The translations under genes and the position numbers were made by a program. Under the pieces are notes generated by a model that saw only the letters and a program-made list of their open reading frames with translations, was not told the DNA's origin and did no database searches. Source: Deltaproteobacteria bacterium (GTDB lineage: Bacteria; Desulfobacterota; Desulfomonilia; UBA1062). Taken from it: 64,000 nucleotides of DNA. Location of the stretch: NCBI GenBank assembly GCA_029547045.1, contig JAKPQL010000065.1, positions 23,402 to 87,401 on the forward strand, given 5' to 3'. This document shows, piece by piece, positions 3,666-63,582 of the stretch. The number at the start of each line of letters is the position of its first letter. The first letter of the stretch is position 1.

Positions 3666-3694
3666 GGTCATGGACCCCTCCTCCGAGTGTTTCA

Positions 3695-3707
3695 TTCAAT
3701 TTGAATC
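3695..3707. promoter_or_regulatory. Perfect palindrome ATTCAA-T-TTGAAT in the prx-like/marR intergenic region; candidate MarR operator
   Basis: The 13-bp inverted repeat sits about 30 nt upstream of the start of the Prx-like gene. Confidence 0.35.
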
Positions 3708-14750: not shown

Positions 14751-16048
14751 CTAGAAAGGCCTCCCCGTGGCCATGTCTGCTTCAGCAGAAGCCTGGTGGG
14801 CCATGTCGATGGAACGCCCCAGGGTGTTCATGACCTGGGACGGGTTGTGGAAGCCCATGCCGTTCTCTGCGGCCACCACGTCCCAGAACCACTGGGCCCT
14901 GCGGATCAGTTCCCTGGCCTTCTCGAGGCGGGTCTTGTCCGCCGTCTGGATCGCAGCCGCCCTGGAGATGGTCTCGTGGGCCCTGGCCACGGTCTGACCG
15001 GCGATATGCTGGAGCTGCCAGCAGTTGTCCTGCACGGTCTTGACACGGTCCAGCAGCCACTTCTCGTCCTGGGTGTGGCAGGTCATGCAGGATGCCTGCA
15101 CATGCTTCAGCGGGCTCGTCACCCAGTGGGAGGAGTACTTCTGGCCCTTGTCCCGCATGAAGGGCATGTGGCAGTCGGCACATGCCACGCCGGATCTCGC
15201 GTGCACACCACCCGTGAAGGTCTCGAAGTCCGGGTGCTGGGCCTTGAGCATCCTGGCCCCGGAGTCGGGGTGGACCCAGTCCTGCTCGAAGCCGGCGGGC
15301 TTCTGTGCATAGTAGGAGTACATCTCTTCCGGCAGGTATCCCTTGTCCCAGGGAAACACCACTTTCTTGGAGGCGGGTTCGAAGTAGTACTCGCTGTGGC
15401 ACTGGCCGCAGACATAGCTGCGCATGTCCTGCCGTGAGGCCTTGCTCACGTCTATGCCCAGGCGCTCCATGGCCTCGATGAATGCCGGGTTCACCACGGT
15501 GAGCTTCATGGTCACCGGGTCGTGGCAGTTGGCGCAGGTGACGGGGTGCTTCACGCCAAGGAGGATGTCGGCCAGGGGCAGTTTCGCATATTCCCACCCC
15601 TTGTCCCTGTAGATGTCGGATCGGCTGTCTTGCAGGTCATGCACGCGCCGACGCTGGCTGGCGTGACCCTCCTGGTCTCCTTGAGGTCCTCCAGGGCATA
15701 GGGATGACCCCGGTCTTCGGCGTAATCCTTGCTGAAGGGCATGCCCTTGAAGTTCATGAGGATCTCCGGTTCCTTCACGGACTTCTGCACCTTCTCGCTG
15801 CCGCCGAAGCCCGTGGGTGACAGGGCCATGCCGCGGTTCTTCAGGTAGCTTGCGTATTGCAGCGTGTAGTGCTGACCCCACACGGCCGGGTCATGCTCAC
15901 CTGCCGGGATCCTTGCCAGCTTGATGGTGGTCTCGGGTCGAAGGAAGAAGGCCTGCGCCATGATGGCGGCAAAGAGAAAGGCAGCGAGCACTGCGACGGC
16001 CAGGACGATCTTTGTGTTCCTATTCAACGCTGATCCCTCCTTGTACAA
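14751..16048 (-). pseudogene. nrfA: Cytochrome c nitrite reductase NrfA (pentahaem), interrupted by a -1 frameshift near 15617
   Basis: The N-terminal frame (16048..15551) has a signal peptide and haem 1 'CMTCK'. The C-terminal frame (15881..14751) has CANCH, CGQCH, CADCH and CMTCH. One G missing in 'gtcggatc' separates ...CKTAD from DIYRDKGWEY; the native sequence was likely ...ADPDIYRDKGW. A sequencing error is possible. Confidence 0.8.
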
Positions 16049-16493
16049 GGCCGGTGCCGTGGATGAGGGCCCGGTGACAGTTCAGGCACGCGGTTCCCGG
16101 TGAAGCCATGAACGTGTTCTGCACGGTGGAGAAGTGGCACCGCAGGCAGTTTCCCTCCACGATGCCGCGCCCCTCATCGGAGAGCCGCAGGGAGGCGGGA
16201 TAGGATCTCAGGGTCTCGTGGTACAGGTCGTTGAGGCCGGCCCTTGTCTTGTAAGCGGCCTGCGCCACGAGATTGGAATCGGGCAGGTGGCATTCGATGC
16301 ACGCATACTGCTTGTGAAGGGACCGGCCCCATGTGTCTCCCACGTCCTTCATGCTGTGGCAGGCCGTGCAGAAGGCGGGATTGCCCGATGCGTGGTAGCC
16401 CGAGACCACCGCAGCACAGAAGACGACACCCACGACTACCCCTGCAGCGAGAATCCTGAGGGCCGGCGCTCGAAGTATATCACGATAGCCCAC
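16020..16493 (-). CDS. nrfH: NrfH, a tetrahaem NapC/NirT-family membrane quinol dehydrogenase
   Basis: The product has an N-terminal TM helix and four CxxCH motifs (CTACH, CIECH, CLRCH, CLNCH). Its 3' end overlaps the nrfA start by 29 nt. GGAGG lies 10 nt upstream of the GTG start. Confidence 0.85.
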   Translation of the reverse strand: MGYRDILRAPALRILAAGVVVGVVFCAAVVSGYHASGNPAFCTACHSMKDVGDTWGRSLHKQYACIECHLPDSNLVAQAAYKTRAGLNDLYHETLRSYPASLRLSDEGRGIVEGNCLRCHFSTVQNTFMASPGTACLNCHRALIHGTGLVQGGISVE

Positions 16494-18907: not shown

Positions 18908-20305
18908 ATGGCACACGACCACGGCATCTTCCTCGACCACGCCGCCTCCACCCCCGTGCACCCGCAGGTCCTGGGCCTCATGCTCCCCTTCTTCGGCAAC
19001 CACTTCGCCCCGCCCTCGAGTCCATTCTCCGCCGGGGGAAAGCCCCGGGCGGCCCTGGAGCAGGCACGGCAGTGCGTTGCAGGGCTCATCGGGGCGGGTG
19101 CGTCAGAGATCGTCTTCACCGCTACGGGCACCGAGGCGAACAACCTGGCCCTGCTGGGCGTTGCCCAGGGCCGCAGGGGCCACGCCGTGGTGAGCGGCTT
19201 CGAGCACGCCTCGGTCCTGCACGCCATGGAGCATCTGCAGTCCGCTGGCATGGAGCTCACCGTGCTGGGCGCCGGTCCCGGCGGCATGGTGGACCCTGCG
19301 GAGGTCAGCGACGCCCTGCGGGACGACACGGTCATGATCAGCGTCATGCATGCGTGCAACGAGACCGGGGTGATCCAGCCCGTGGAGGAGATCGGCCGCA
19401 TGGCCAGGGAGCGCGGCATAACCTTCCACTGCGACTGCGTGGCCAGCGCGGGGAAGATCCCCGTGGACGCTGCCGCCCTGCACGCCGACCTCATCTCCCT
19501 CTCCTCCCACAAGCTCTACGGGCCCAAGGGCGCAGGCGCGCTCTACGTGCGCAGCGGCACCAGGATATCCCCCGTCCTCTTCGGCTCCGCCCAGGAGAGA
19601 GGGCTGCGGCCTGGCGCGCTCAACATGCCCGCCATTGTGGGTTTCGGCAGGGCCTGCGAGGAGGCGCGCTCCGCCCTGGTTTCAAACGCGGACCATACCC
19701 GGGGGCTGCGGGACCTGCTGGAGCGAGAGATCTCATCGCGCATCCCCGGCGTGACGATCAACGGCGCCGGCTGCTGCCGGGTCCCCCACATCTCGAGCAT
19801 CTCCTTTAGCGGTATCCAGGCCGATAACCTGGCGGCCTGGCTCGACCTGCACGACATCACCGTGTCCGGAAGGGGATCGCGCCTGTCGAGCGTCTCCCCC
19901 CGGCGCCTGGAGGCGCTGGGCATCGCCCAGGACCTCGCACCGGGCACGGTCCGGTTCAGCCCCGGGTGGGAGAACACCGAAGACGAGATGCGCGAGGTGG
20001 CCCATGCCGTTGAAAAGGCAGTCTCCGGGCTCAGGGAATTCGCCCTGCAGCTCCGGGACGCGCCCGTCTGCATCATGGCCCTCCTCTCCAGGAACCACGT
20101 GGAAAGGGCATGCGCCTACCTCTCTGGGGAAGGCATCCCCTGCGCTGTCACGGCCCGGCCCGAGGGGCTCTCCCATCTGCCGGGGCCCGAGGCGGCCATC
20201 GCTGTTCCATACGCCCGCCGGCAGGACGTGGAAAGGATCCTGGGCTCCCACAGGGTCACTGCCGCAGGCAGGCATTGTCTCTCCCGTTGGGGGCACAGGC
20301 CATGA
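18908..20305 (+). CDS. Cysteine desulfurase (NifS/IscS-like class V aminotransferase) with a ~90-aa C-terminal DUF3343-like extension
   Basis: The PLP lysine region is 'SLSSHKLYGPKGAGALYV'. The active-site loop is 'ACNETG...RSG'. The C-terminus 'VCIMALLSRNHVERACAYLSGEGIPCAVTARPEGLSHLPGPEAAIAVP' resembles the stand-alone DUF3343 protein at 34615..34863. Confidence 0.8.
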   Translation: MAHDHGIFLDHAASTPVHPQVLGLMLPFFGNHFAPPSSPFSAGGKPRAALEQARQCVAGLIGAGASEIVFTATGTEANNLALLGVAQGRRGHAVVSGFEHASVLHAMEHLQSAGMELTVLGAGPGGMVDPAEVSDALRDDTVMISVMHACNETGVIQPVEEIGRMARERGITFHCDCVASAGKIPVDAAALHADLISLSSHKLYGPKGAGALYVRSGTRISPVLFGSAQERGLRPGALNMPAIVGFGRACEEARSALVSNADHTRGLRDLLEREISSRIPGVTINGAGCCRVPHISSISFSGIQADNLAAWLDLHDITVSGRGSRLSSVSPRRLEALGIAQDLAPGTVRFSPGWENTEDEMREVAHAVEKAVSGLREFALQLRDAPVCIMALLSRNHVERACAYLSGEGIPCAVTARPEGLSHLPGPEAAIAVPYARRQDVERILGSHRVTAAGRHCLSRWGHRP

Positions 20306-24950: not shown

Positions 24951-25226
24951 GTCGTGACTCCTTTCTGGTTCTGATTCATTATCCAGAGGAGGTACCCAAG
25001 CACGGTGAAGGACGTATGAAGAACGTGATACTGTATGATGAAGACATCTTACTCGGGTTGTTATCTCGTTGCAGGCAAGAATCATGGGAAGAATGCCAGG
25101 AGCTCTATGCATGTCTGGAGAGATCACATCCCGGGGCTGACAACCCATTCCGAGGAACTCCTCATTGACCATGCATAGCCATCTCAGCTACACTTCTTGC
25201 CAATTCATCCTGTGGGGTGCAGGGCC

Positions 25227-25904
25227 ATGAACATCCATATCGCCGTGGTCGACGACGAGCCTGACATCATCCATTTGGTGAGCATCCACCTCAAGAAGGC
25301 GGGGTTCATGGTGGACGGGTACCATGACGGCGATTCGTTCATGAGGTCGCTGCAGCGCAGAACCCCGGGGCTCGTCATCCTCGACCTCATGCTCCCGGGC
25401 ATGGACGGCTTCGAGGTCTGCCGCATGCTCAAGCGCGACCCTGCCACCTCGTCCATCCCGGTGATCATGCTCACGGCCAAGGGCCACGAGGCGGACAAGG
25501 TGGACGGGCTGGAACTGGGAGCCGACGACTACGTGACCAAGCCCTTCTCGCCCAGGGAGCTCGTCGCGCGGGTGAAGGCGGTGCTCAGAAGGAGGGGCCG
25601 CACAGAGCCTGAGACGCTTGCACTGGGAGATCTCATCACCATCGACCCGGAGCGCTTCGAGGTGAAGGTGAACGGGGAGGTCGTGGTCCTCACCCCGGTG
25701 GAGTTCAAGATCCTGCACCTGCTGGCCAGGAACCAGGGCAAGGTCTTCACCCGAGACCGCATCCTCGACCACCTCTGGGGAAACGAGAAGGCGGTGCTGG
25801 ACCGGACCGTGGACGTCCACATCAAGAACCTGAGGGAGAAGCTCGGAGACGCGGGCGACATCATCAGGAACGTGCGCGGCGTGGGGTACAAGCTGCAGGT
25901 ATGA
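25227..25904 (+). CDS. phoB: Phosphate regulon response regulator PhoB (OmpR family)
   Basis: The receiver domain is 'IAVVDDEPDI...LDLMLPGMDG' and the winged helix is 'RVKAVLRR...VHIKNLREKLG'. The stop overlaps the phoR start (ATGA). Confidence 0.9.
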   Translation: MNIHIAVVDDEPDIIHLVSIHLKKAGFMVDGYHDGDSFMRSLQRRTPGLVILDLMLPGMDGFEVCRMLKRDPATSSIPVIMLTAKGHEADKVDGLELGADDYVTKPFSPRELVARVKAVLRRRGRTEPETLALGDLITIDPERFEVKVNGEVVVLTPVEFKILHLLARNQGKVFTRDRILDHLWGNEKAVLDRTVDVHIKNLREKLGDAGDIIRNVRGVGYKLQV

Positions 25905-27616
25905 AACGGCCCATCTTCCTCAAGATCTTTTCCGGCTTCCTGGTGGTGACGATCCTGCTCGCCTCTCTCATCCTGCTGGCCTTCTACAATGTCATCCAGA
26001 CCCATTACCTGCGGTTCACCGAGCAGAAGCTGGAGCGCATCGGAATCCCGCTCCGGCAGGTCATCGCCCCGCTGTTGCTGGGAAAGGATGCCGCCTCCCT
26101 GAACAGCATGGCCAGAGATTACGGGCCTCGGCTCGACCTGAGGATCACCGTCATCGACCCTTCCGGCACGGTGCTTGCCGATTCCGAGCGCGACCCGGCC
26201 ACCCTGGAGAACCACCTGCAGCGGCCCGAGGTGAAGGGAGCCCTCGAAGCGGCGGCAAGCAGTGCCATCCGCTACAGCAAGACCCTGGACGAGGACCTCC
26301 TCTACGTCGCCCTGCCCGTGGAAGACCGTGGCAGGATCATCGGCGTGCTGCGCCTGAGTATGTCGCTCAAGCACATCAGCGACCTGAACAAGGCGCTGCT
26401 GGTACGGCTCGTCGTGCTCAGCGCCGTGATCATCCTGGTCTCGCTCGTGCTGGCCGCGATCTTCTCCCACCTTCTGGCCACCCCCATCCGGGCCCTGAGC
26501 AAGGCTGCATCCCGCATCGCCGGTGGAGACTTCTCGGCGCGGGTAAGCCCTTCGACCACGGACGAAATCCAGGACCTCTCCAACGGCTTCAACACCATGG
26601 CAGGCAAGCTCGAGCAGTCATTCAGCGAGCTCAGCTCCCGCAAGGAGGAGCTGGAGGGGATCCTGGCATCCATCACCGGACCGCTGTTCGTGCTGGACGC
26701 GCAGGGCAGGGTGACGCTCTCCAATGCCGCCGCACGCAGGGTCATCGCCACCGAAACAGCCTCGGGCAGGTATTACTGGGAGCTCATACGATCCGCCAGG
26801 CTCAACGAGCTTATGGGCGAGGCCACGAAAGGAACGGCCTCGGGAGAGGTGGAGTTCGCCGGACTCACCTACCTGTGCAGCATCACGCCCCTGGCATCCC
26901 GCCAGGGCAACGTCATGCTGCTCCACGACATCACCCAGATGAAGGAGCTCGAGAGGATCAAGCAGGACCTGGCCGTGAATGTTTCCCACGAGCTGAGGAC
27001 CCCGCTGACCGCCATCAAGGGCTTCACCGAGACCCTCATGGAGGAGGCCTCCGAAGGCCAGGCCGAGTACCTCAGGATCATCCTTCGCCATACCGAGCGC
27101 CTCATCGCCATGGTGAACGACCTGCTCGTGCTGTCCGAGATGGAAGAGACGGCCAGGATCGACCGAGAAAGGGTTGATCTGCAGGACATTCTGTCATCCG
27201 TCCTTGTTGTCTATGAGCCCCGGATAAGGGCCAAGGGGATCGATCTCGTGGTGGACTGCCCCCATCTGGAAATCTCGGCCGATGCCTTCAGGCTGGAACA
27301 GCTCCTCACGAACCTGGTGGACAACGCGCTGAAGTACACGGACAAGGGGGCCATCCGCATACGGGCCGGGATCACAGGCGGTATGGTGACCATCGAGGTG
27401 CAGGATACCGGCCCGGGCATCCCCCGGGAGCACCTGAGCAGGATCTTCGAGCGGTTCTACGTAGCGGACAAGTCCAGGTCGCGGAGCATGGGCGGCACGG
27501 GCCTGGGTCTTTCCATTGCCAAGCACATCGCCACGCTCCACGGTGGCAGGATCGAGGTAATGAGCACACCCTACCAGGGTACCACTTTTTCCGTCATCCT
27601 CCCTGTCGGTCCCTGA
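25901..27616 (+). CDS. phoR: Phosphate regulon sensor histidine kinase PhoR-like (TM-HAMP-PAS-HisKA-HATPase)
   Basis: The H-box is 'NVSHELRTPLTAI'. The G-boxes are 'DTGPGIPREHLSRIFERFY' and 'GGTGLGLSI'. Confidence 0.9.
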   Translation: MKRPIFLKIFSGFLVVTILLASLILLAFYNVIQTHYLRFTEQKLERIGIPLRQVIAPLLLGKDAASLNSMARDYGPRLDLRITVIDPSGTVLADSERDPATLENHLQRPEVKGALEAAASSAIRYSKTLDEDLLYVALPVEDRGRIIGVLRLSMSLKHISDLNKALLVRLVVLSAVIILVSLVLAAIFSHLLATPIRALSKAASRIAGGDFSARVSPSTTDEIQDLSNGFNTMAGKLEQSFSELSSRKEELEGILASITGPLFVLDAQGRVTLSNAAARRVIATETASGRYYWELIRSARLNELMGEATKGTASGEVEFAGLTYLCSITPLASRQGNVMLLHDITQMKELERIKQDLAVNVSHELRTPLTAIKGFTETLMEEASEGQAEYLRIILRHTERLIAMVNDLLVLSEMEETARIDRERVDLQDILSSVLVVYEPRIRAKGIDLVVDCPHLEISADAFRLEQLLTNLVDNALKYTDKGAIRIRAGITGGMVTIEVQDTGPGIPREHLSRIFERFYVADKSRSRSMGGTGLGLSIAKHIATLHGGRIEVMSTPYQGTTFSVILPVGP

Positions 27617-27683
27617 TCCGCTCACGAATATCCCGTGTGAGCCCTTGCATCTCCTCACCCCGTCGATGCCCCTGACTCTCCCC

Positions 27684-27712
27684 TTGACTCATCCTCCCAA
27701 TACTTATACAAA
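27684..27712 (+). promoter_or_regulatory. Sigma-70-like promoter (TTGACT-N15/17-TATACA/TACAAA) upstream of the DUF47-pitA pair
   Basis: The hexamers were read directly from the sequence. No clear Pho-box was recognised. Confidence 0.25.
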
Positions 27713-27764
27713 ATCACAAGGCCATCGACGATGTTTCTCAAGCGAGTACAGGGGAGGGACGGAT

Positions 27765-28391
27765 ATGGGCTTCAGCTTCATCCCGAAAGATTCGAATTTC
27801 TTTGTCCTTTTCAATAAGCAGGCACAATTCGCGGTTACCGCTGCATCCATGTTCGCCCAACAGACCTCCCGGGGCCCCTTTGACGCCGAATCGGTCTCCA
27901 AGATGAGGGACATCGAGCACCAGGCGGACGAGGTGGCCCACGAGATCATGAACCGCCTGAACAAGACCTTCATCACCCCCTTTGACCGCGAGGACATCCA
28001 CTCCCTGGCATGCGCCATGGACGACGTCATCGACATGATCTACACCATCACCAACCGCATGTATGTCTACAAGATCAAGAACGTGGATCAGGACCTCATC
28101 GAGTTTGCGGTCATCATCGAGAAGTCTGTCCGTGCCCTGGCCAAGGCGATAGAAGGCCTGCAGAATACCAAAAATCCACAGTGCGCCCTGGACTCGTGCA
28201 TCGAGGTGAACCGGCTCGAGAACGTGGGTGACACCATGAGGGACAACATCCTGGGCAAGCTCTTCGAGACGTCCACCGACCCCATCCACCTGGTCAAGTG
28301 GAAGGAGATCTACCAGTTCGCCGAGACCGTCCTCGACATGTGCGAAGACGTGGCACACGTGGTGGAATCCATCTTCGTGAAACAGGCATGA
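27765..28391 (+). CDS. DUF47 / PhoU-like Pit accessory protein
   Basis: The product is a TIGR00153-like helical protein located immediately upstream of pitA. AGGGGAGGGA RBS is present. Confidence 0.85.
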   Translation: MGFSFIPKDSNFFVLFNKQAQFAVTAASMFAQQTSRGPFDAESVSKMRDIEHQADEVAHEIMNRLNKTFITPFDREDIHSLACAMDDVIDMIYTITNRMYVYKIKNVDQDLIEFAVIIEKSVRALAKAIEGLQNTKNPQCALDSCIEVNRLENVGDTMRDNILGKLFETSTDPIHLVKWKEIYQFAETVLDMCEDVAHVVESIFVKQA

Positions 28392-28395
28392 TCCA

Positions 28396-29376
28396 ATGAC
28401 GATCTACATCGTCCTTCTCATCCTGCTGGCACTCTTCTTCGATTTCCTGAACGGGTTTCACGACTCGGCCAATTCCATTGCCACCATTGTCTCCACGCGG
28501 GTCCTCTCACCGAAGTACGCGGTGATCTGGGCCGCCTTCTTCAACTTCATCGCCTTTCTGTTCCTGGGCCTGCACGTGGCCAACACCATCGGCAAGGGGA
28601 TCATCGACGTGGGCATCATCGATGCGCACGTCATCTTCGCCACCCTCGTGGGCGCATGCCTGTGGGACATCCTCACCTGGTACCTCGGCCTGCCCACGAG
28701 CTCGTCCCACGCACTGATCGGCGGCATGGTGGGAGCTGCGCTGGTCAAGGCGGGTCCAGACTCGCTGGTTGCAGCGGGGATCATCAAGACCGTGGCCTTC
28801 ATCTTCGTCTCCCCCACGGTGGGGCTCCTCCTCGGCCTGACCATCGGGATAGTCGTCTACTGGGCATTCAGGAAGGCCACCCCGCTGCACGTGGACCACA
28901 TCTTCCGCAAGGGGCAGCTCGTCTCCGCCGCCCTGTACAGCCTCGGCCACGGCGGAAACGACGCCCAGAAGACCATGGGCATCATCGCGGGCCTGCTGTT
29001 CAGCGCCGGGGCGCTTGGCGAAACCTTTCACATCCCCTTCTGGGTGGTCTTTTCCTGCCAGGCCTCCATCGCCCTGGGCACCCTGTTCGGCGGGTGGAGG
29101 ATCGTCAAGACCATGGGCCAGAAGATCGCCAAGCTCAGGCCCGTGGACGGCTTCTGCGCCGAGACCGGGGCGGCAGCGAGCCTGTTCATCTCCACCATGA
29201 TGGGAGTTCCGGTGAGCACCACCCACACCATCACGGGCGCCATCATGGGCGTGGGTTCTCTCAGGCGCCTGAGCGCGGTGCGCTGGGGCGTGGCGGGGCG
29301 CATCGTGTGGGCCTGGATCCTCACCATCCCGGGTGCTGCGATCATCTCGGCAATAACCTATACGATTACGCAATAA
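28396..29376 (+). CDS. pitA: Inorganic phosphate transporter, PiT family
   Basis: The conserved motifs are 'FLNGFHDSANSIAT' and 'GHGGNDAQKTMG'. Confidence 0.9.
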   Translation: MTIYIVLLILLALFFDFLNGFHDSANSIATIVSTRVLSPKYAVIWAAFFNFIAFLFLGLHVANTIGKGIIDVGIIDAHVIFATLVGACLWDILTWYLGLPTSSSHALIGGMVGAALVKAGPDSLVAAGIIKTVAFIFVSPTVGLLLGLTIGIVVYWAFRKATPLHVDHIFRKGQLVSAALYSLGHGGNDAQKTMGIIAGLLFSAGALGETFHIPFWVVFSCQASIALGTLFGGWRIVKTMGQKIAKLRPVDGFCAETGAAASLFISTMMGVPVSTTHTITGAIMGVGSLRRLSAVRWGVAGRIVWAWILTIPGAAIISAITYTITQ

Positions 29377-29450
29377 ACCAAGATTTCACGATATCTTCAT
29401 CCTTCCTTAACACTGTCGGGTGTAGTGTAACGGAAAAACAGTTCGGAGGA

Positions 29451-30296
29451 ATGAAGATGAATACACGGTTGTCTCTATCAGTGTTCCTGTGCATCCTGGC
29501 GGCGGGGCTTCTCATCCCTGTTGTCCCGGCTACCGGCCATGCGTCGGGTGGAGCCATCACCATCAAGGGATCCACCACGGTGCTCCCGATCGCCCAGGTG
29601 GCGGCCGAGGAATTCATGGACAGGAACCCGGGCATCAAGATCTCGGTGCAGGGCGGAGGATCAGGCGTGGGGATCTCCTCGCTCATCGACAAAACCACGG
29701 ACATCGCCACCTCGTCCCGCAGGATCAAACCCGAAGAGATCGAGAAGGCCAAGGCCAAGGGCGTGACACCCAGCGAGATCGTCATCGCCCTGGACGGTAT
29801 CGCGGTGATCGTGCACCCGGGCAACAAGGTGAGCGCGCTCACCAAGGCCCAGCTCAAGGACATCTACACCGGCAGGATCTCCAACTGGAAGGAACTCGGC
29901 GGAGCCGACGCCAAGATCGTCACGGTGAGCCGCGACACCTCGAGCGGAACCTACGAGGCCTTTGAGGCGCTGGCCATCAACAAGGAGAAGGTGAGGCCCG
30001 ATGCGCTGACCACGGCATCCAACCAGGCTGTGGCCCAGACCGTTGCCCAGACCCCGGGCGCCATCGGGTATGTGGGTCATGGCTACCTCACCGGCAAGGT
30101 GAAGGACGTGACCGTGGACGGCGTCAAGTGCACCAAACAGAACATCCAGTCCGGCAAGTACCCCCTTGCACGGGAGCTGTACATGTATACGAACGGCAAG
30201 CCGTCGGGCAACACGGCCCTGTTCGTACACTTCGTGCTCAGCAAGGACGGGCAGAAGCTGGTGGAAGACGAAGGTTTCGTGGACATCCTGAAATAG
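29451..30296 (+). CDS. pstS: Phosphate ABC transporter substrate-binding protein PstS
   Basis: The product has a signal peptide and the PstS motifs 'ITIKGSTTVLPIAQ' and 'GGGSGVG...SSR'. The start is 29451 or 29457. Confidence 0.9.
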   Translation: MKMNTRLSLSVFLCILAAGLLIPVVPATGHASGGAITIKGSTTVLPIAQVAAEEFMDRNPGIKISVQGGGSGVGISSLIDKTTDIATSSRRIKPEEIEKAKAKGVTPSEIVIALDGIAVIVHPGNKVSALTKAQLKDIYTGRISNWKELGGADAKIVTVSRDTSSGTYEAFEALAINKEKVRPDALTTASNQAVAQTVAQTPGAIGYVGHGYLTGKVKDVTVDGVKCTKQNIQSGKYPLARELYMYTNGKPSGNTALFVHFVLSKDGQKLVEDEGFVDILK

Positions 30297-30312
30297 CCTC
30301 TTTGAACGAACT

Positions 30313-30349
30313 GCCGGGGAGAAAGGTCTCCATGCCCTTTCTCCCCGGC
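30313..30349 (+). terminator. Perfect 14-bp stem / 9-nt loop hairpin (GCCGGGGAGAAAGG...CCTTTCTCCCCGGC) between pstS and pstC
   Basis: Both arms are exact reverse complements. A T/C-rich tract follows the hairpin. The position is typical of an intra-operon attenuator or stabiliser after pstS. Confidence 0.55.
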
Positions 30350-30440
30350 TCTCTTCCCTGTTCTCAGGCTCGAGAAAAAGAACGAAAACTTCACACAATC
30401 TTAACCAATCCCGACTATAGGTACAGACCGGGGAACAGCA

Positions 30441-31340
30441 ATGGATATCAGGAGATTCAGATCATTCAAAGAGGGCGTGTACAAGTACAGCTTCGCCATG
30501 CTCGCCTTTGCATCCCTGGTCTTCCTCTTGGGTATCATCCTCACCCTGTTCATGCAGTCATGGCAGGTCTTCTCCACCATCCCCCTGACCGACATGGTCT
30601 TCGGGAAACACTGGTACCCCACCCACGAAGATGCCGCGTTCGGCATGTGGCCGCTGATGGCGGGCACCGCCCTGGTAACGCTGGGCGCCATGTTCGTCTG
30701 CGTACCCATCGGCGTGGGGACCGCGCTCTACATCCACGAGCTGGCAGGCCAGCGGCAGAGGGCCTTCCTGAAGCCCCTCATCGAGGTGCTGGCCGGGGTC
30801 CCGTCCATCGTGTACGGCTTCTTCGGCATGGTCATCGTGGCGCCCTTCCTGCAGGACCTCCTGGATATCCCCACGGGCCTGTGCGCCTTCACCGCGAGCC
30901 TGATCCTCGGTATCATGGCCACCCCCACGGTGGCGAGCCTGTCCGAGGACGCGCTGAGCTTCGTCCCGCGGAGCTTCCGCGAGGCCTCGCTGGCGCTCGG
31001 GGCCAACCGGTGGCAGACCCTCACGAAGGTGGTGGTCCCGGCGGCCGGGTCCGGCATCTCCACGGCCATCATCCTGGGCCTCGGCAGGGCCGTGGGCGAG
31101 ACCATGACCGTGCTCATGGTGGCGGGCGGTGCAGCGGCCATACCGAAGGGCATCTTCGACCCGGTGCGCCCCATGACGTCCACCATCGCGGCCGAGATGG
31201 GAGAAGCGGTCATGGGGAGCCTCCATTTCAGCGCACTCTTCGCCATCGGGCTGATCCTGTTCCTCATCACGCTTGGTGTAAACGTCATCGCCGAGGTCGT
31301 CAGCAGGAGATTCCGGCTGAAGCTGGGGCTGGGCAGATGA
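30441..31340 (+). CDS. pstC: Phosphate ABC transporter permease PstC
   Basis: The product has 6 TM helices and the EAA-like loop 'ALGANRWQTLTKVVVP'. Confidence 0.9.
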   Translation: MDIRRFRSFKEGVYKYSFAMLAFASLVFLLGIILTLFMQSWQVFSTIPLTDMVFGKHWYPTHEDAAFGMWPLMAGTALVTLGAMFVCVPIGVGTALYIHELAGQRQRAFLKPLIEVLAGVPSIVYGFFGMVIVAPFLQDLLDIPTGLCAFTASLILGIMATPTVASLSEDALSFVPRSFREASLALGANRWQTLTKVVVPAAGSGISTAIILGLGRAVGETMTVLMVAGGAAAIPKGIFDPVRPMTSTIAAEMGEAVMGSLHFSALFAIGLILFLITLGVNVIAEVVSRRFRLKLGLGR

Positions 31341-32254
31341 ACATATCGGATACGGCGATCCAGACCACCGGGAAAGGCATGGGGCTTGTCGGGAAGCGCC
31401 TGCGCACGAGCGACCTGGTGCAGGCCCTGGGCTTTGCGTGCCTGATCCTGTGCGTCCTGTTCGCCCTGTTCTTCCTGGGGTCCCTCATATACTTCATCAC
31501 CGCCAAGGGCATATCCGTCATTTCCTGGGAATTCCTCACTTCGGTGCCGCGGCGCGCCATGACCAGAGGAGGCGTGGCGCCCGCCATCGTGGGCACCTTC
31601 TACCTCACCGTGGGGGCGCTCTCCTTCGCCCTGCCCCTGGGGCTGGCCTGCGCCATCTACCTGTGCGAGTACAGCCCTGGCACCACGGTGGTGAATATCA
31701 TCAGGCTCTCCATCAACAACCTCGCAGGGGTCCCGTCCGTGGTGTTCGGGCTCTTCGGGTTCGCGGTCTTCGTGAAAATGTTCGGCTTCGGCGTGTCCAT
31801 CCTCTCGGGCAGCCTGACGCTCGGCATCATGGCCCTGCCCGGCATCATCTCTGCCTCCCAGGAGGCCATCCTGGCCGTGCCGCAGTCGTACAAGGAGGCG
31901 TCCCTGGCGCTCGGGGCCACCCACTGGCAGACCATCAGGAAGGTGGTGCTGCCCACGGCCCTGCCGGGGATCCTCACCGGCGTGATACTGAACGTGGGCC
32001 GGGTGGCGGGCGAGACCGCGCCCATCCTGTTCACGGCCGCCACCTTCTACACCAGGGGATACCCGGACTCCGTCTTCTCCGAGGTCATGGCCCTGCCGTA
32101 CCACATCTATGCCCTCATGACCGAGGGGACCAGGCCCGAGGTGCAGACCGGCATCGCGTACGGCTGCGCGCTCATCCTGCTGGCCCTGGTGCTTGCCATA
32201 TCGGCCCTGGCCATTATCCTGAGACAGAGACAGAGGATCAACTATGGCTCCTGA
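31337..32254 (+). CDS. pstA: Phosphate ABC transporter permease PstA
   Basis: The conserved loop is '[18 protein letters not shown]'. The start overlaps the pstC stop (ATGA). Confidence 0.9.
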
Positions 32255-33005
32255 GACCAAGATCAGCGCGAGAGACGTCGATTTCTACTATGGCAGGACC
32301 AAGGCCCTGAAAGGCATCTCGCTGGACATCCACTCCAAGCAGGTCACCGCGCTCATCGGGCCTTCCGGGTGCGGCAAGTCCACCTTCATCCGGCTGTTGA
32401 ACCGCATGAACGACCTCATCCCTGGCTCGAAGGTTCAAGGCTCCATCCTCATGGACGGTCTCGACATCAACCACCCCAAGACCGACGTGGTGGAGCTCCG
32501 TCGCAGGGTGGGCATGGTCTTTCAGAAGCCCAACCCCTTTCCCAAGAGCATCTACGACAACATGGCCTACGGGCTCGTCATAGGCGGCATCAGGGACAGG
32601 GACATCATCGAGCAGCGGGTCGTCACCTCGCTCAAGAAGGCGGCCCTGTACGATGACGTGAAGGACCGCCTCCACGACAGCGCGCTCATGCTCTCGGGCG
32701 GCCAGCAGCAGCGGCTCTGCATCGCGCGGTGCCTCGTGGTGGAGCCCGAGGTGATCCTGTTCGACGAGCCCTGCGCGAGCCTGGACCCCATCTCCACCCG
32801 CAAGATCGAGGAGCTGATCCTGGAGCTCAAGCAGGACTACACCATCGCCATCGTCACCCACAACATGCAGCAGGCTGCCCGGGTCTCGGACTACACCGCC
32901 TTCATGTACCTGGGCGAGCTCGTCGAGTACGACCGCACGGAACGGATGTTCACCGTTCCCAAGGAGCGCATGACAGAGGAATACCTGAGCGGCAAGTTCG
33001 GATAA
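32244..33005 (+). CDS. pstB: Phosphate ABC transporter ATP-binding protein PstB
   Basis: Walker A is 'GPSGCGKST', the signature is 'LSGGQQQRL' and Walker B is 'ILFDEP'. Confidence 0.95.
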
Positions 33006-33014
33006 GGAGACACC

Positions 33015-33674
33015 ATGCTGGAAGAGTCGAAACTGGTACAGGTGAAGAGAGAGCTCATGGAGTTCGCCGCCCTGGTGGAGTCCATGGTGGACAAGAGCGT
33101 CACCGGGCTGAAGAACCGCACCGCGGATCTCCTCCACGAGGTGATCGAGACGGACGAGCCCAGGGCAAACAGCTTCGAGACGGACCTTGACGAGCGGTGC
33201 GTGTCCATCATCGCCCAGCACCAGCCCGCGGGCAAGTCGCTCCGCACCATCCTCATGGTGCTGCACATCAACTCCACCCTTGAGCGCATAGGCGACCACG
33301 CGGTGACCATCGCAGAGAGCTCGCTCTTCCTCATGGAAAGGGCGCCGGTGAAGCAGCTCATCGACATCCCCCACATGGCCGAGGTGGTCAAGACCATGAT
33401 CACGGACAGCATCGACTCCTTCATCAACGAAGACGCCGAGCTCGCAAGGGCCGTGTGCGAGCGGGACGACGTCGTGGACGGACTGCGCACCCAGATCCTG
33501 CGGGAACTCATCACCTTCATGACCTCGGACCCCACCACCATCGAACGGGCCCTGCAGATCATGAAGATCGCGAGCAACCTGGAGCGAGTGGCCGACCTCG
33601 CCACGAACATCTGCGAGGACGTCATCTACATGGTCAAGGGTAAGGTGATCAAGCACCACAAGGACAGCGAGTGA
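33015..33674 (+). CDS. phoU: Phosphate signalling complex protein PhoU
   Basis: The product is a duplicated PhoU domain with 'ERIGDHAVTIAE' and 'ERVADLATNICE'. Confidence 0.9.
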   Translation: MLEESKLVQVKRELMEFAALVESMVDKSVTGLKNRTADLLHEVIETDEPRANSFETDLDERCVSIIAQHQPAGKSLRTILMVLHINSTLERIGDHAVTIAESSLFLMERAPVKQLIDIPHMAEVVKTMITDSIDSFINEDAELARAVCERDDVVDGLRTQILRELITFMTSDPTTIERALQIMKIASNLERVADLATNICEDVIYMVKGKVIKHHKDSE

Positions 33675-33716
33675 ACTGGTTCTCCCCTGGCCGCGTCGCC
33701 CGGGAGAGGCCTCCTG

Positions 33717-34499
33717 TCAGAATGACCTGAAGACCTCGTACGAGACGAACATGACGATCTCGATGGCGATGAGCGCGATGATGATCCACTCGAGGCTGGC
33801 CGAGTGCTTGTGGTACTGCTCGGCGGCGAGCATGCTGAAGAGCTCATGGATGACCTCGAGCTTGTCGTTGAGCGTCTCGGCCCGCTGGGTCACTTCCAGG
33901 TAGCGGGCCATCATCACGTAGGTCTTCTCCCATTCCGGGTACTCCCAGAAGAACTCCGGCGTTTCGAGCAGGTTGTTGCGCAGGTTGATGTCGCTCTTCA
34001 CCAGGTAGAGCCTGCCCCGCATCATGGCGATCTCCTTCCGCTTCAGGCGGGTCTCTCCGGTGTGCGCGATGTTGATGGGGATCTGGGAGGTCTCCTCGAT
34101 GGTGTTCTGGGCCGCGATCTCGAACTCCTCGAGCTTCACCGACTGGGCGATGCCGTGCGACAGGGCGAGCTTTTCCAGGACCTCGTCCGTCTCCAGACTG
34201 ATGTGGTCATCCTTTACGCGGCTCGCACCGTCCACTGAGAAGCTGAACTCGTCCAGGATGTGCCGGGCAAAGGGCTCGATGCGGTATGCGTCCACGGCGG
34301 CGAGCACCCGGTCGAGATCGTTCTGGGGAAGGCCCCAGGCCACCAGTGCCCCGTAGGAGAAGAGGAACACGTCACCCGCCTTGAGCTTCAGGTGCAGCAC
34401 GTCGCGGTATGCAGTGCACTTGTGCTGGTCCTCCAGACCGGCCTTCAATGCCGGGAAGTCGAAATTCTTGGCCACGCACAGGGCGATGCAGGTTTCCAC
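33717..34499 (-). CDS. DUF155 / RMD1-family protein
   Basis: The product has a DUF155 core and a C-terminal TM helix. A GTG start is proposed at 34499 because GGGGAGGGAG sits 7 nt upstream. Confidence 0.65.
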   Translation of the reverse strand: METCIALCVAKNFDFPALKAGLEDQHKCTAYRDVLHLKLKAGDVFLFSYGALVAWGLPQNDLDRVLAAVDAYRIEPFARHILDEFSFSVDGASRVKDDHISLETDEVLEKLALSHGIAQSVKLEEFEIAAQNTIEETSQIPINIAHTGETRLKRKEIAMMRGRLYLVKSDINLRNNLLETPEFFWEYPEWEKTYVMMARYLEVTQRAETLNDKLEVIHELFSMLAAEQYHKHSASLEWIIIALIAIEIVMFVSYEVFRSF

Positions 34500-34614
34500 C
34501 GGGTCGCTCCCTCCCCTTGTCTCGCGGCGTCTGTCTGCCGCACAGTGCACAGTATACCAGAAAAACAAAAGGAGCAGGAGCTCCTTATCGGATCAGGGGG
34601 TCCCAGGCGGGCTG

Positions 34615-34863
34615 TCAGGACGGACGTGGCCGGGAATCGGGCAGCCTGTGGACGCCTGCCACCCTGACCCTGCCTGCCAGGACCTCCTCGGCGAGGGCCC
34701 GCTGGTGGGCGTCCACGCGGATGCAGACACCGCAGTCTGAGCTGATATGCCGGGGGATCGGCACGAGTTTGTAGGGTATGCCCTTCTCCTTCAATGCCTG
34801 CTCGGCGGCCAGGGTCGCGCTCACCGACTCGAAGACGAGCACCCAGCGTTCCACCGTGCTCAT
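34615..34863 (-). CDS. DUF3343 (putative Se/S carrier-like) small protein
   Basis: The 82-aa product carries 'VLVFESVSATLAAEQALKEKGIPYKLVPIPRHISSDCGVCIRV'. Its start overlaps the yedF stop (ATGA). Confidence 0.7.
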   Translation of the reverse strand: MSTVERWVLVFESVSATLAAEQALKEKGIPYKLVPIPRHISSDCGVCIRVDAHQRALAEEVLAGRVRVAGVHRLPDSRPRPS

Positions 34864-35441
34864 ACCCGCACGATCCGGCCCGCCTGGAGCATGGTCTGGG
34901 CGATGTCGTACATGTTGGACACCGATCCCACCGCGAGCCTGTCCTTGAGGTCGAAGAAGCCCAGGCAGGTCCCGCACACCAGTATGCGCGTCCCCTGGCC
35001 GGCCAGGGCCTGCAGGTCGTCCAGCACCTCGGATCCTGCCACGGCGAGCCTCACACCGGTGTTGAACAGGATGAGCACATCGGGTCGGGGGGACGTGTCC
35101 TGAAGCGTGTGGATGAAGCTCTTCATGAGGACCGACCCCAAGGTGTCGTCGCCGCTGCCCATGGTGTCGGAGCCGAGGACAGCCACCACCGGTCCCCCCT
35201 CCGCGATGATCTCCCCCGCCATGGGACATGCGACCTGCCGGGTTATGGTGAGCAGGGTGTCGAGACCCTGCTCCTGCTCGGAAACCGCACAGCCGAGACT
35301 GGTCGCGAGCTTCCTGACGTTCTCCCGGGCAATGGCGTCGTTCACTAGGACCACGACTTCGTCGTGATCAGCCAGGGCCTTCTTCGCCAGGATCACTGGC
35401 TGCGGGCATGCCAGCCCGCGGGCGTCAACGGTATGTGCCAT
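34860..35441 (-). CDS. yedF: YedF-type selenium-metabolism protein (TusA-like N-domain plus DsrE/DsrF-like C-domain)
   Basis: The TusA 'CPxP' motif is 'TVDARGLACPQPV'. The C-terminal half is DsrE-like ('VLILFNTGVRL...ILVCGTC'). GGAGGGAG RBS is present. Confidence 0.7.
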   Translation of the reverse strand: MAHTVDARGLACPQPVILAKKALADHDEVVVLVNDAIARENVRKLATSLGCAVSEQEQGLDTLLTITRQVACPMAGEIIAEGGPVVAVLGSDTMGSGDDTLGSVLMKSFIHTLQDTSPRPDVLILFNTGVRLAVAGSEVLDDLQALAGQGTRILVCGTCLGFFDLKDRLAVGSVSNMYDIAQTMLQAGRIVRV

Positions 35442-35475
35442 GGGTTCTCCCTCCTTGCGTTGTCCTGTTGCGCGC

Positions 35476-36639
35476 TCACCGATTGTATGCGATGGATGCA
35501 ACGGCATCAATGGTCTCGTCGATATCCCGGGCCGTGTTGAAGAACCCGATGCTCGCCCGTACGGTGCCCTGGGGGAAGGTCCCCAGCGCCCTGTGGGCCG
35601 AGGGCGCGCAATGCAGCCCGGACCGGATCATGATGCCGAACTCGTCGTCGAGCCTGAAGGCCACTTCGGAGGGCTCCACGCCCTCCAGGGTGAAGGACAC
35701 CACGGCGATCCTGTGATAAGGGTCCCGCGGGCCGATGACCCTTATGCCCTCGATGGCGGCGAGGCCCTCCATGAGTCTGCGGGCGAGCGTCATCTCGTGT
35801 TCCCTGATCCGCTCGACGCCCTGGGAGGCCACGAAGTCGATCCCGGCGAGCAGCCCAGCGATGCCGGGAGTGTTCGGGGTGCCGGACTCGTACTTGTCCG
35901 GCATGAAGAGCGGCTGCTCCTCGCGCTCCGAGGCGCTCCCCGTCCCGCCCATGGCCAGCGGCGAGATGCGTGCTTCGAGCCCTTCCCGGACATAGAGCCC
36001 CCCGGTTCCCTGGGGACCGTACAGGGACTTGTGCCCGGTGAAGGCGAGGAGGTCTATGCCGTCGCGTCCCACGTCGATGGGCAGGCACCCGGCGGTCTGG
36101 GAGGCATCCACGCACAGGGGGATGCCCCGCTCACTGGTGATGGCCCCCACCTGGGACACGGGCATGACGGTGCCGGACACGTTGGACGCATGGGTGAGCA
36201 CCACCAGCGCGGTCTGCCTTCTGATGGCCTTCCCCACGTCGTCCGGATCGAGGGTTCCGTCCGCGGAGCATGCCACCACGCTCACCTCGACGCCCCGCAG
36301 CTCCATGGCGCGCAGGGGCCGCATCACCGAGTTGTGCTCCATGGCGGAGGTGATGACGTGGTCCCCGGGCCCGAGCATGCCCTGGATGACTATGTTCAGC
36401 GCCCCGGTTGCGTTCCCGGTGAACACGAGCCGCAGGGGATCGGATATTCCGAACAGGGCCGCTGTTTGCCGTCGGGCCTCTGCGATGACGCGGGCCGCCT
36501 CTATGGACAGCGTGTGCCCGGACCTCCCGGGGTTCGCAGCTGCCTCCCTGATGATATGCTCCACGGCACGCGGCACGCATTCGGGCTTGGGCCAGGTGCT
36601 CGCGGCGTTGTCGAGATAGATGCGCAGCTTCTCTTCCAT
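35476..36639 (-). CDS. Cysteine desulfurase family protein (class V aminotransferase; possible selenocysteine lyase)
   Basis: The PLP lysine region is 'LAFTGHKSLYGPQGTGGLYV' and the catalytic Cys loop is 'RSGLHCAPSAH'. AAGGAAGA RBS is present. Confidence 0.85.
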   Translation of the reverse strand: MEEKLRIYLDNAASTWPKPECVPRAVEHIIREAAANPGRSGHTLSIEAARVIAEARRQTAALFGISDPLRLVFTGNATGALNIVIQGMLGPGDHVITSAMEHNSVMRPLRAMELRGVEVSVVACSADGTLDPDDVGKAIRRQTALVVLTHASNVSGTVMPVSQVGAITSERGIPLCVDASQTAGCLPIDVGRDGIDLLAFTGHKSLYGPQGTGGLYVREGLEARISPLAMGGTGSASEREEQPLFMPDKYESGTPNTPGIAGLLAGIDFVASQGVERIREHEMTLARRLMEGLAAIEGIRVIGPRDPYHRIAVVSFTLEGVEPSEVAFRLDDEFGIMIRSGLHCAPSAHRALGTFPQGTVRASIGFFNTARDIDETIDAVASIAYNR

Positions 36640-36873
36640 GTCTTCCTTGGCGAGTGGGGTTTGCGTGCAGAGGCTTGCTTGTTTGCCGGAGCAGGTACCT
36701 GCACGTGTTCCTGTGCCGAGCACTAGAGGATCAGGCCTGCCCTGTCAAATGCAGAAAATGCATACCGCGCACAGTCCGATGCGTAATGAGAATGCATCAA
36801 GACACAGATCCGAGGGTGAAGGCCCGGGCCGCCCATCGCGCCGGGGCCTTCTCCTCCATGCCTGGGGAAGATT

Positions 36874-37989
36874 CTAGATTCCGCCTGGAGACAACAGAAC
36901 TGCCAGAACGGTAAACTGGTCATCTCCGGTATCGTACCTGCCGATGATCTCCGCGTCGCTGCCGACGGCGATGTCGCTCATAAGGAGATCTTCGCCGCAG
37001 GGGGTCATGACAAGGCTCTGCGCCAGCAAGACCGCATCCACGTCCCCGGAGAGCTCTTCACCCGCACCGGGACTCAGCGTGAACTCACCTTCAGCGGGAA
37101 GCGCGGTCACCGAGCCTTCCACCACCAGCACATCCCCGATGACCACGAGCCGCGCCTGCAGGACCCCGTCCATGGTCAGATAGCCGTATACCACCACGGC
37201 CTGGTCCTCCTGCAGGGAGTCAGGGGTGACGTACTGGTTGTTTTCAGAAAAGGTCAGCATGTCATCGGCGAAGTGCACCCTCAGGTCGCCCAGCACCTCA
37301 AACTCCCGGCCCATGATGAACCCGTCTGGAGAGGCATCAAGGTCCGCGTCCAGCAGCGAATCGATGGCGCCCCTGAAGAGCATGGAGCACGGGGTCGAGG
37401 TCGATCCCCGGGCGATGACGTCGGCAAAGACCACGGGCCTGAAAACGCATTTTCCGGAATTGCCCGCTTCGTGCAGGTGAATGGACCTGTCGGCATCGAT
37501 ATCAAGGCGGAGATACAGGACCTGCCCTTCATCCACTGTGAAGGCGCCCTGGGGATTGATATCGATCCTGCCGCCGGGCAGGAAGAGGTCCATGCCCTCG
37601 CAGGGGCCGCCCACGGCGTGGAGACCGCTGATGGCGAGCCTGATCTTCTCGTATCTGCCCACCGGAACCTCCTCGTTCAGGATGAGCAGGAAGTCTTCGT
37701 CGCGCAGGTCAAGAAGATCGACGGTATACCCGTCGCTGGACGTGAAGACCACGACGGGATTGGATTCCTCCCCCTCCGGCAGCAGGGACACCCCGGTGAT
37801 GGTGATGTAGATGTGATCGAACCCATCCGTGGGCGCATCCGTGAGCAGGACACCCACGGATCCATAGGAACCTTCTGCTTCGGGATGAGACGATCCGCCG
37901 CTGCTGCATGCCGCAAGGTATACGCTGACGAGTGCTGCTGCACCAAGGACGAGGAGAAGCGCTGCACCGGTACGCAGATATCTGTTCAT
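36874..37989 (-). CDS. DUF4382-like lipoprotein
   Basis: The signal peptide carries the lipobox 'LAAC'. 'GVLLTDAPTDGFDHIYITITGVSLL' is characteristic of DUF4382. AGGAGG lies 5 nt upstream. Confidence 0.65.
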   Translation of the reverse strand: MNRYLRTGAALLLVLGAAALVSVYLAACSSGGSSHPEAEGSYGSVGVLLTDAPTDGFDHIYITITGVSLLPEGEESNPVVVFTSSDGYTVDLLDLRDEDFLLILNEEVPVGRYEKIRLAISGLHAVGGPCEGMDLFLPGGRIDINPQGAFTVDEGQVLYLRLDIDADRSIHLHEAGNSGKCVFRPVVFADVIARGSTSTPCSMLFRGAIDSLLDADLDASPDGFIMGREFEVLGDLRVHFADDMLTFSENNQYVTPDSLQEDQAVVVYGYLTMDGVLQARLVVIGDVLVVEGSVTALPAEGEFTLSPGAGEELSGDVDAVLLAQSLVMTPCGEDLLMSDIAVGSDAEIIGRYDTGDDQFTVLAVLLSPGGI

Positions 37990-38171
37990 GCCTGCCTCCT
38001 TTGAGGATCCTGCCATCCATGGCCCTGACACGGAGCGGTCAGGGAGGCGGAACACCCCTTTATACGCGCGGTGCTACCCATCGCACCGGGTCACATCGGC
38101 GACAATATACTGTGCCATAAATCCACCGGAATGTCCATCAGGAGGCAGGTGCGGGCCCGTATATCCCCCCC

Positions 38172-63117: not shown

Positions 63118-63582
63118 CTACGATCCCATGCCGCACTGCTTGCCGGCGCAGACCTCCCGGATGAACCTGCCCACGAAGTAGTACCCCCCGGAGAGCGCCA
63201 CGATGACTGCGGCGATGCCGACGAGCGTCAGGCCGTCCAGATTCTTCACGTCAAGGATGATGACCTTGCGGGCCACGGCGATGAGCGCCATGGCGAAGAC
63301 CACCTCCACGTGCACCTCGCTGTCCGTGAGGTAGGCCCGCAACGTGTAGACCAGCTCGATGCCGATGAGCACCAGGAGGAACAGGCCGAAGATGTCCAGC
63401 AGCTCGTCGATCTCCAGCAGGAAGAGCGGGTAGGTGAAGACATCCTGGATGATGACCCAGCCGAGCTCCACGGTGGACAGGAGGATGACGAGGATCATCA
63501 TACAGATGAGCGCGGTGACGATGATGCGTTCGAAGCGTCCGAGAAAGGTCAGAAGCTTGTTGCTCGAATCGTTGGTATTCAT
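63118..63582 (-). CDS. psiE: PsiE family (phosphate-starvation-inducible) membrane protein
   Basis: The product is a 4-TM PsiE-like protein ('FERIIVTALICMMILVILLSTVEL...'). Confidence 0.75.
   Translation of the reverse strand: MNTNDSSNKLLTFLGRFERIIVTALICMMILVILLSTVELGWVIIQDVFTYPLFLLEIDELLDIFGLFLLVLIGIELVYTLRAYLTDSEVHVEVVFAMALIAVARKVIILDVKNLDGLTLVGIAAVIVALSGGYYFVGRFIREVCAGKQCGMGS

Follow-up and report, generated by a model that had tools for sequence, protein, structure and literature searches.

A candidate selenium relay module of three genes, encoding a desulfurase-family enzyme, YedF and a DUF3343 protein, in an uncultured deltaproteobacterium

We analysed a 64,000-nucleotide stretch of DNA from a Deltaproteobacteria bacterium (GenBank assembly GCA_029547045.1, contig JAKPQL010000065.1, positions 23,402 to 87,401; hereafter the window), in which three adjacent genes encode a class-V aminotransferase of the cysteine desulfurase family, a YedF-type protein and a small DUF3343 protein. 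Judged from their arrangement, the three look like a genuine operon read as one transcription unit, and we think it somewhat probable that this operon encodes a protein-bound chalcogen relay that serves mainly selenium. The module type is already known from comparative genomics, and the window is a clean new example of this known, predicted module: Lin et al. (2015) found YedF, DUF3343 and a "Sec lyase family" gene (Sec, selenocysteine) to be clustered and associated with SelD, described CPxP and CGxC motifs as well as a conserved cysteine in DUF3343, and proposed DUF3343 as a selenium or sulfur chaperone (PMC5322559). YedF and DUF3343 are leading candidates for the step by which bacteria single out selenium from much more abundant sulfur and bring it safely to SelD.

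The three genes form an apparent transcription unit

The genes and the signals around them are as follows.

35476..36639, minus strand: desulfurase/lyase gene, 387 amino acids; ATG preceded by AAGGAAG
34860..35441, minus strand: yedF, 193 amino acids; preceded by AGGAGG
34615..34863, minus strand: DUF3343 gene, 82 amino acids
34860..34863, minus strand: stop of yedF overlapping the start of the DUF3343 gene as ATGA, as seen in the sequence itself
34569..34586, minus strand: hairpin with a 7-bp stem (AAGGAGC/GCTCCTT), then TTGTTTTT; terminator-like, closing the operon
36640..36873, minus strand: upstream intergenic region of 234 nt; candidate promoter/operator

An initial annotation of the window had described three co-directional minus-strand genes here, with an ATGA overlap between the second and the third, and the sequence confirms both points. 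The lyase stop is followed after 34 nt by yedF, and this gap contains AGGAGG. The terminator-like hairpin begins about 30 bases past the end of the DUF3343 gene; one terminator-like site was found in the region, where 1.1 are expected by chance, and we regard the hairpin as credible because it is placed immediately past the DUF3343 stop. Within the 234-nt region upstream of the lyase gene, no sigma-70 consensus was found. This region holds two GA(A/G)AATGCAT repeats with 34 nt spacing (36754..36797), a pair that may be an operator of the operon, as well as a GC-rich hairpin (15-nt inverted repeat, 36815..36854) right after the DUF4382 gene. The gene spacing, the ATGA overlap, the hairpin with its T-run and the 234-nt upstream region together indicate that the trio is an apparently self-contained transcription unit.

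Family assignment and conserved residues of the three proteins

The profile searches that the initial annotation had proposed (TIGR03527, PF11823 and TIGR01977) all gave scores above cut-off, so that its naming of the three products stands. The class-V, desulfurase-family enzyme is a pyridoxal phosphate (PLP) enzyme by its Pfam match (PF00266, 7e-95) and passes NCBIfam TIGR01977 (am_tr_V_EF2568) with 475.4 bits against a cut-off of 377. The founding member of that family, SclA (EF2568) of Enterococcus faecalis, is a Sec lyase on which cysteine acts purely as a competitive inhibitor (bioRxiv 10.1101/2020.02.07.939272). The window enzyme carries His102, Asn103, the PLP lysine Lys204 and the catalytic Cys344, and its His, Lys and Cys (H102/K204/C344) correspond to H99/K202/C341 of SclA. 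When the enzyme was aligned with 48 yedF-linked homologues (n = 49), Lys204 was invariant and Cys344 was present in 48 of the 49 sequences. Its nearest solved structures are type II desulfurases (5b7s, SufS, CsdB). The position of Asn103, equivalent to His100 of SclA and Asp146 of human selenocysteine lyase (SCL), is Asn in 49/49 aligned sequences, and this invariant Asn at the specificity position of yedF-linked lyases is a small new observation. The position has been reported as His in group II enzymes and is reported to tune Sec/Cys specificity in the human enzyme, D146K having given human SCL cysteine desulfurase activity (PMC3266270); the H100N variant of SclA kept Sec lyase activity and had the highest turnover among the variants tested (bioRxiv 10.1101/2020.02.07.939272).

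The second product had been described as a YedF-type protein with a TusA-like CPxP domain and a DsrE-like domain, and the profiles and the structure model bear this out. It passes TIGR03527 with 204.1 bits (cut-off 110) over profile positions 1-193 of 194, and its N-terminal domain is SirA/TusA-like (PF01206, 55 bits). The C-terminal domain scores 22.2 bits with DsrE (PF02635), slightly below the gathering score of 22.7. An AlphaFold2 model of the protein (predicted local distance difference test, pLDDT, 87) has two domains, of which the first superposes on SirA-like 3hz7, on TusA as seen in the IscS-TusA complex (3lvj_C) and on YeeD, and the second on the DsrE-family structures 1l1s, 2pd2 and 3pnx and on TusD (2d1p_A). 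Since the model matches the DsrE family, the DsrE-like nature of the C-terminal domain is confirmed despite the marginal Pfam score. The resemblance to TusA is one of fold and logic, as the TusA equivalog NF001423 gives 19 bits against a cut-off of 78. The protein carries C12-P-Q-P (CPxP) in its N-terminal part and C156-G-T-C159 (CGTC) in its C-terminal part, and 25 aligned YedF homologues keep C12, P13, P15, C156 and C159 without exception.

The third product, predicted beforehand as an 82-amino-acid DUF3343 protein, passes PF11823 (once DUF3343, since renamed "Se_S_carrier") with 68.6 bits against 25 over profile positions 2-68 of 69. In an alignment of 30 homologues, its SSDCGVC motif has an invariant S41-S-D-C44-G-V and a C47 conserved in at least 90% of the sequences. 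The AlphaFold2 model (pLDDT 84) has the order beta-alpha-beta-beta-alpha-beta and places the cysteine motif in the loop between beta2 and beta3; a specific solved relative was looked for by structure comparison and none was found. A selenocysteine variant of DUF3343 was also considered, and a search for SSD-TGA-G in 80 loci (described below) returned none. As every predicted active residue is intact, the locus is convenient for biochemical tests, and with its three genes, own upstream region and terminator it offers a compact construct for them.

Conservation and selenium linkage across 80 loci

We retrieved 80 yedF loci from different other species, analysed them with tblastn and clustered all flanking open reading frames. 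For the most interesting recurrent neighbours, representatives of the clusters were scanned with NCBIfam models to obtain a name; the assignment of selA and selB comes from sequence alone, without such a scan. The hosts are Desulfobacterota, Chloroflexota, Spirochaetota, Zixibacteria, Clostridia, Myxococcota and Bdellovibrionota-like metagenome-assembled genomes (MAGs). The counts were as follows.

DUF3343 gene at most 200 nt downstream of yedF: 63/80 loci
DUF3343 start abutting the yedF end (at most 3 nt): 13/80 loci
TIGR01977-like enzyme adjacent on the same strand: 48/80 loci
Exact window order lyase, yedF, DUF3343: 30/80 loci
selD within 8 kb: 23/80 loci (SelD, TIGR00476, 353 bits)
Double-cubane anaerobic reductase: 25/80 loci (NF040772, 442 bits)
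Selenium-metabolism LysR (LysR_Se): 9/80 loci (NF040786, 275 vs 250)
yedE: 8/80 loci (TIGR04112, 480 bits)
Rhodanese-related protein: 8/80 loci
Acyl-CoA dehydratase-type activase: 7/80 loci
Small TusA-like protein: 7/80 loci
selA: 5/80 loci
selB: 5/80 loci
ArsS radical-SAM (seleno)protein family: 5/80 loci (TIGR04167)
At least one of selD, selA, selB, yedE and LysR_Se within 8 kb: 36/80 loci

The arrangement of the trio is not due to chance, because DUF3343 follows yedF in 63 and a desulfurase is adjacent in 48 of these loci. For one given gene, the chance expectation of finding it within 8 kb is well under 1% of loci, and the selenium linkage, seen in 36 of the 80, is therefore real; where selD is a neighbour it lies mostly directly downstream. 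In Campylobacter jejuni the homologues of YedE and YedF are FdhT and FdhU, both needed for formate dehydrogenase activity. The selenium association that had been claimed for YedF and DUF3343 is thus supported by genomic context, and the same linkage has been described before (PMC5322559). Taken as genomics, the window goes only slightly further than Lin et al. (2015) and than the present NCBIfam and Pfam names, which encode that view. What the survey adds are the gene-order counts, the linkage to selD and to the double-cubane reductase over 80 species, and the invariant Asn of the yedF-linked lyases.

The double-cubane reductase stands beside yedF in loci L010-L013, L015, L016, L023, L024, L026, L029 and others. 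Its place in the closest relatives is immediately 5' of the lyase gene; the window is without it.

A possible route of selenium through the three proteins

In the order of events that we infer, for the substrate of the relay, for the direction of each transfer (that from YedF to DUF3343 included) and for the final acceptor alike, the TIGR01977 enzyme would bind L-selenocysteine at Lys204-PLP and move the selenium onto Cys344 as a Cys-S-Se(-) selenosulfide, with release of alanine. The lyase is of type II (SufS/CsdA-like) with a short cysteine loop and would therefore need a dedicated acceptor; type II desulfurases (SufS-SufE, CsdA-CsdE) work with such acceptors. YedF may be that acceptor, taking selenium on Cys12 in the TusA-like half before moving it to the two CGTC cysteines in the DsrE/TusD-like half. 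DUF3343, which the ATGA overlap would keep in a fixed ratio with YedF, might next take the selenium on its SSDCGVC loop and pass it to SelD, encoded elsewhere in the genome, for selenocysteine synthesis.

By analogy, this logic would copy the IscS to TusA to TusBCD route of Escherichia coli, with TusA and a TusD-like domain fused. The window proteins share with the IscS-TusA-TusBCD-TusE system, which serves tRNA 2-thiouridine, a PLP desulfurase, a CPxP carrier of the TusA fold and a carrier of the DsrE/TusD fold; they differ from it in that the TusA and DsrE-like parts are fused, TusB, TusC and TusE are absent, the desulfurase is of type II and the context speaks for selenium over sulfur. A second likeness is to SufS-SufE/SufU and CsdA-CsdE, since the closest solved structures of the window enzyme are SufS, CsdB and the CsdA type, with a co-encoded cysteine-bearing acceptor; the partners here have none of the SufE, SufU and CsdE folds, one being a TusA/DsrE fusion and the other small and ferredoxin-like.

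The closest described cluster is Shel_25430-25450 of Slackia heliotrinireducens (PMC5322559), which shares with the window the clustering of the three families, the CPxP and CGxC motifs of YedF, the DUF3343 cysteine and the link to SelD. The "activase" and "2-hydroxyglutaryl-CoA-dehydratase-like" genes of the Slackia type recur in the related loci, where we identify the latter as the double-cubane reductase. Unlike the Slackia cluster, the window trio stands alone between DUF4382 and DUF155/pst-phoU, without selD, selA, selB, yedE or the reductase nearby, and the host is different, an uncultured Desulfomonilia-like deltaproteobacterium of anaerobic digester-type metagenomes. The window enzyme and SclA share the TIGR01977 family; sclA lies in a selD-containing operon and YedF is not mentioned in the SclA paper, whereas the window enzyme is encoded with YedF and DUF3343. 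FdhU of C. jejuni is reported as a synonym of YedF that takes part in the biogenesis and expression of selenium-dependent formate dehydrogenase; as summarised in PMC5322559, that case concerns YedF and formate dehydrogenase, not the lyase-DUF3343 module, and the window is without yedE.

Evidence for selenium use in this organism

The initial annotation had pointed to a putative selenoprotein at 3135..3665 as a sign that the organism uses selenium. The gene is this one.

3135..3695, minus strand: peroxiredoxin-like (AhpC-TSA_2) gene with an in-frame TGA; candidate selenoprotein, context RHFG-TGA-MFAR

When the TGA is read as Cys, PF00578 (AhpC/TSA) matches residues 13-108 and so spans position 44, and PF13911 (AhpC-TSA_2) matches residues 55-161, downstream of the TGA, which lies at about what we take to be the position of the peroxidatic cysteine. 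The gene call on an NCBI MAG contig is a single 186-amino-acid product across the TGA; other sources split the gene. As a selenoprotein gene it is plausible. A GC-rich hairpin of 7 bp with a GGC loop begins 13 nt past the UGA and folds no more stably than shuffled sequences (z = 0.25). Overall, the gene gives reasonable, not conclusive, evidence of selenocysteine decoding in the organism. No Rfam family reached its gathering threshold within the window, and a tRNA search of the window found none, so tRNA-Sec is absent from it. Beyond the window ends, exact-protein matches gave short contigs, and selenium genes were not found there.

A NifS-like/DUF3343-like fusion in the same window

A second, independent desulfurase-DUF3343 pairing had been proposed in the form of a gene fusion.

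18908..20305, plus strand: NifS/IscS-like PLP protein with a DUF3343-like C-terminal tail, 465 amino acids

The tail of about 90 residues matches PF11823 weakly (15.4 bits, E = 0.013, vs a gathering score of 25). It is kept in about 50 full-length homologues (460-492 amino acids), five of which have a precomputed PF11823 match, and because of this conservation we take the fusion architecture to be real. The pairing itself thus stands, with a tail below threshold, and its independence as a second module does not. In the fusion clade the DUF3343 cysteine is replaced (SHLPGPE vs SSDCGV in the alignment) and the catalytic loop cysteine is lost (SGRGSRLSS vs SGSAC of canonical NifS), the PLP lysine being retained (SSHKLYGP); the cysteine-less form is common to the closest full-length homologues (42-89% identical, 460-492 amino acids). 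An E. coli IscS sequence in this alignment served as a ruler only, and the canonical homologues P0204-P0252 show SGSAC independently. With both cysteines lost, the fusion is incapable of a cysteine-based relay and does not independently confirm the module; it is probably a non-relay version. Mihara et al. (2000) reportedly found that E. coli NifS homologues keep their Sec lyase activity after Cys-to-Ala mutation; if this holds, the fusion would be expected to act on Sec only. A conserved or selenium-linked context for the fusion was sought among its homologues and rejected, the contexts being variable, without a selenium link, and the formyltransferase-like neighbour not conserved.

Selenium delivery weighed against other readings

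Sulfur is the classical cargo of TusA and DsrE domains, and this is one of several points that weigh against a relay for selenium. The carrier role of YedF and DUF3343 for selenium is a putative one, predicted from family membership and gene context. The lyase scores 375.1 bits against the 525 of NF040779, the SclA-specific, exception-level model, so that it is not filed as SclA itself, and it has Asn103 where SclA has His100. Pfam scans of the approximately 55 window proteins found none of selD, selA, selB and yedE in the 64 kb, and the selenium trait of the organism therefore rests on the one candidate selenoprotein gene. Across the survey, a canonical selenium gene was not found within 8 kb in 44 of the 80 loci. 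In the Chloroflexota MAG loci L041, L043, L054 and L066, selD comes directly after yedF with no DUF3343 gene between them, and DUF3343 is for this reason a non-obligatory partner of YedF. DUF3343 also occurs in organisms that lack SelD, and attempts to delimit a selenium-specific subfamily of it gave none (PMC5322559).

Several of these points would be at home in a relay for sulfur, with an ordinary cysteine desulfurase and with YedF and DUF3343 carrying persulfide sulfur to some thiolation target, for instance tRNA, a cofactor, an Fe-S cluster or a double-cubane cluster; the selenium association would then come merely from shared anaerobic lifestyles. Such a relay, which we consider unlikely, draws on the match of the YedF model to the sulfur carriers TusA, YeeD and TusD, on the SelD-lacking organisms with DUF3343, on the fusion in contexts without a selenium link, and on the report that SclA has a higher affinity for cysteine than for selenocysteine (bioRxiv 10.1101/2020.02.07.939272). 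It sits poorly with the linkage to selD, selA, selB, yedE and LysR_Se, which, seen at 36 of the 80 loci, greatly exceeds chance, and with the near-confinement of YedF to SelD-positive genomes, almost all YedF-containing genomes having SelD (PMC5322559). Moreover, the sole characterised TIGR01977 enzyme turns over Sec and not Cys, and the genome holds other desulfurase-like genes for housekeeping sulfur. The direct order yedF-DUF3343-selD in many loci suggests supply of SelD over disposal of selenium, and this speaks against the view, in our opinion quite unlikely, that the module handles selenium redox chemistry or detoxification and not delivery. In such a scheme the CGTC pair of YedF would reduce selenite-derived selenotrisulfides or Se(0) to selenide, or buffer reactive selenide, DUF3343 would be a selenium-binding buffer, and the lyase would clear free, wrongly made selenocysteine to prevent its misincorporation. 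The CGxC pair is indeed invariant and a redox function was earlier proposed for it (PMC5322559), 25 of the 80 loci encode beside yedF an ATP-driven double-cubane reductase (NF040772) and 7 have its activase, double-cubane proteins are almost confined to SelD-positive genomes (Haft 2022, bioRxiv 10.1101/2022.07.06.499078), and yedE transporter genes are nearby in 8 loci. The equivalent region of the DsrE/TusD relatives, on the other hand, carries persulfide and is not a reductase, and Pfam scans of the approximately 55 proteins of the window found no double-cubane protein and no activase.

We judge it improbable that the selenium is destined for something other than selenocysteine, namely the labile selenium cofactor of molybdenum hydroxylases, tRNA 2-selenouridine or selenium small molecules. 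The case for this starts from sclA of E. faecalis, a gene whose operon includes selD and whose host is not known for selenoproteins (bioRxiv 10.1101/2020.02.07.939272; PMC13188914), and for which a labile-cofactor role is suspected in the selD-xdh cluster; rhodanese-related genes accompany the module in 8 loci and the ArsS family (TIGR04167) in 5. The linked genes of the related loci are mainly the Sec-decoding set selA, selB and selD, and the Pfam scans found no xanthine-dehydrogenase-type hydroxylase, yqeB/yqeC, selU/ybbB or senABC among the window genes. Returning to a relay that serves mainly selenium, a bolder form of it would make YedF, DUF3343 and the TIGR01977 lyase a dedicated selenium route to SelD, the counterpart of the Tus relay and in many genomes fed or assisted by the double-cubane reductase, with the fusion as a Sec-only lyase or a regulatory decoy. 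We offer this larger picture tentatively and regard it as doubtful.

Neighbouring genes and other features of the window

Identical proteins in the same gene order are found on metagenome contigs, and the closest named relatives are Desulfomonilia and Syntrophales MAGs. The genes that flank the trio, DUF155 (33717..34568) and DUF4382 (36874..38055), were considered as parts of the module and rejected: they occur with the trio solely in the near-identical contigs L001-L006 and in none of the 80 loci of other species, and the DUF155 gene is also split from the trio by the terminator-like hairpin. Contig L003 (JGI 3300025720) also carries the trio and covers the yedF-DUF3343-DUF155 region of the window (33299..36436) at 99.1% identity. 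Its homology ends at window position 36436, within the 5' part of the lyase gene, and upstream of the break it carries an activase, an HGD-D family gene (HGD-D being the Pfam family also matched by double-cubane reductases) and a second YedF-like gene of 199 amino acids. This contig represents either a variant strain or a chimera from the metagenome assembly.

A dense phosphate-regulon block adjoins the operon on the opposite strand (25197..33674), with a further gene, psiE, at 63118..63582 near the window end. The block comprises a phoB/phoR-like two-component pair, a PhoU_div gene with a PHO4 transporter, and pst-type ABC permease and ATPase genes with a PhoU-like gene; no linkage of it to yedF was seen in the related loci. 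Further away, an nrfA-like cytochrome c552 gene (14751..16048, minus strand) lies in two reading frames that match profile positions 1-99 and 104-380, with a junction near 15605-15613, which points to a frameshift, a pseudogene or a sequencing error. Just upstream of this nrfA-like gene, at 16020..16493, is a NapC/NirT-type gene.

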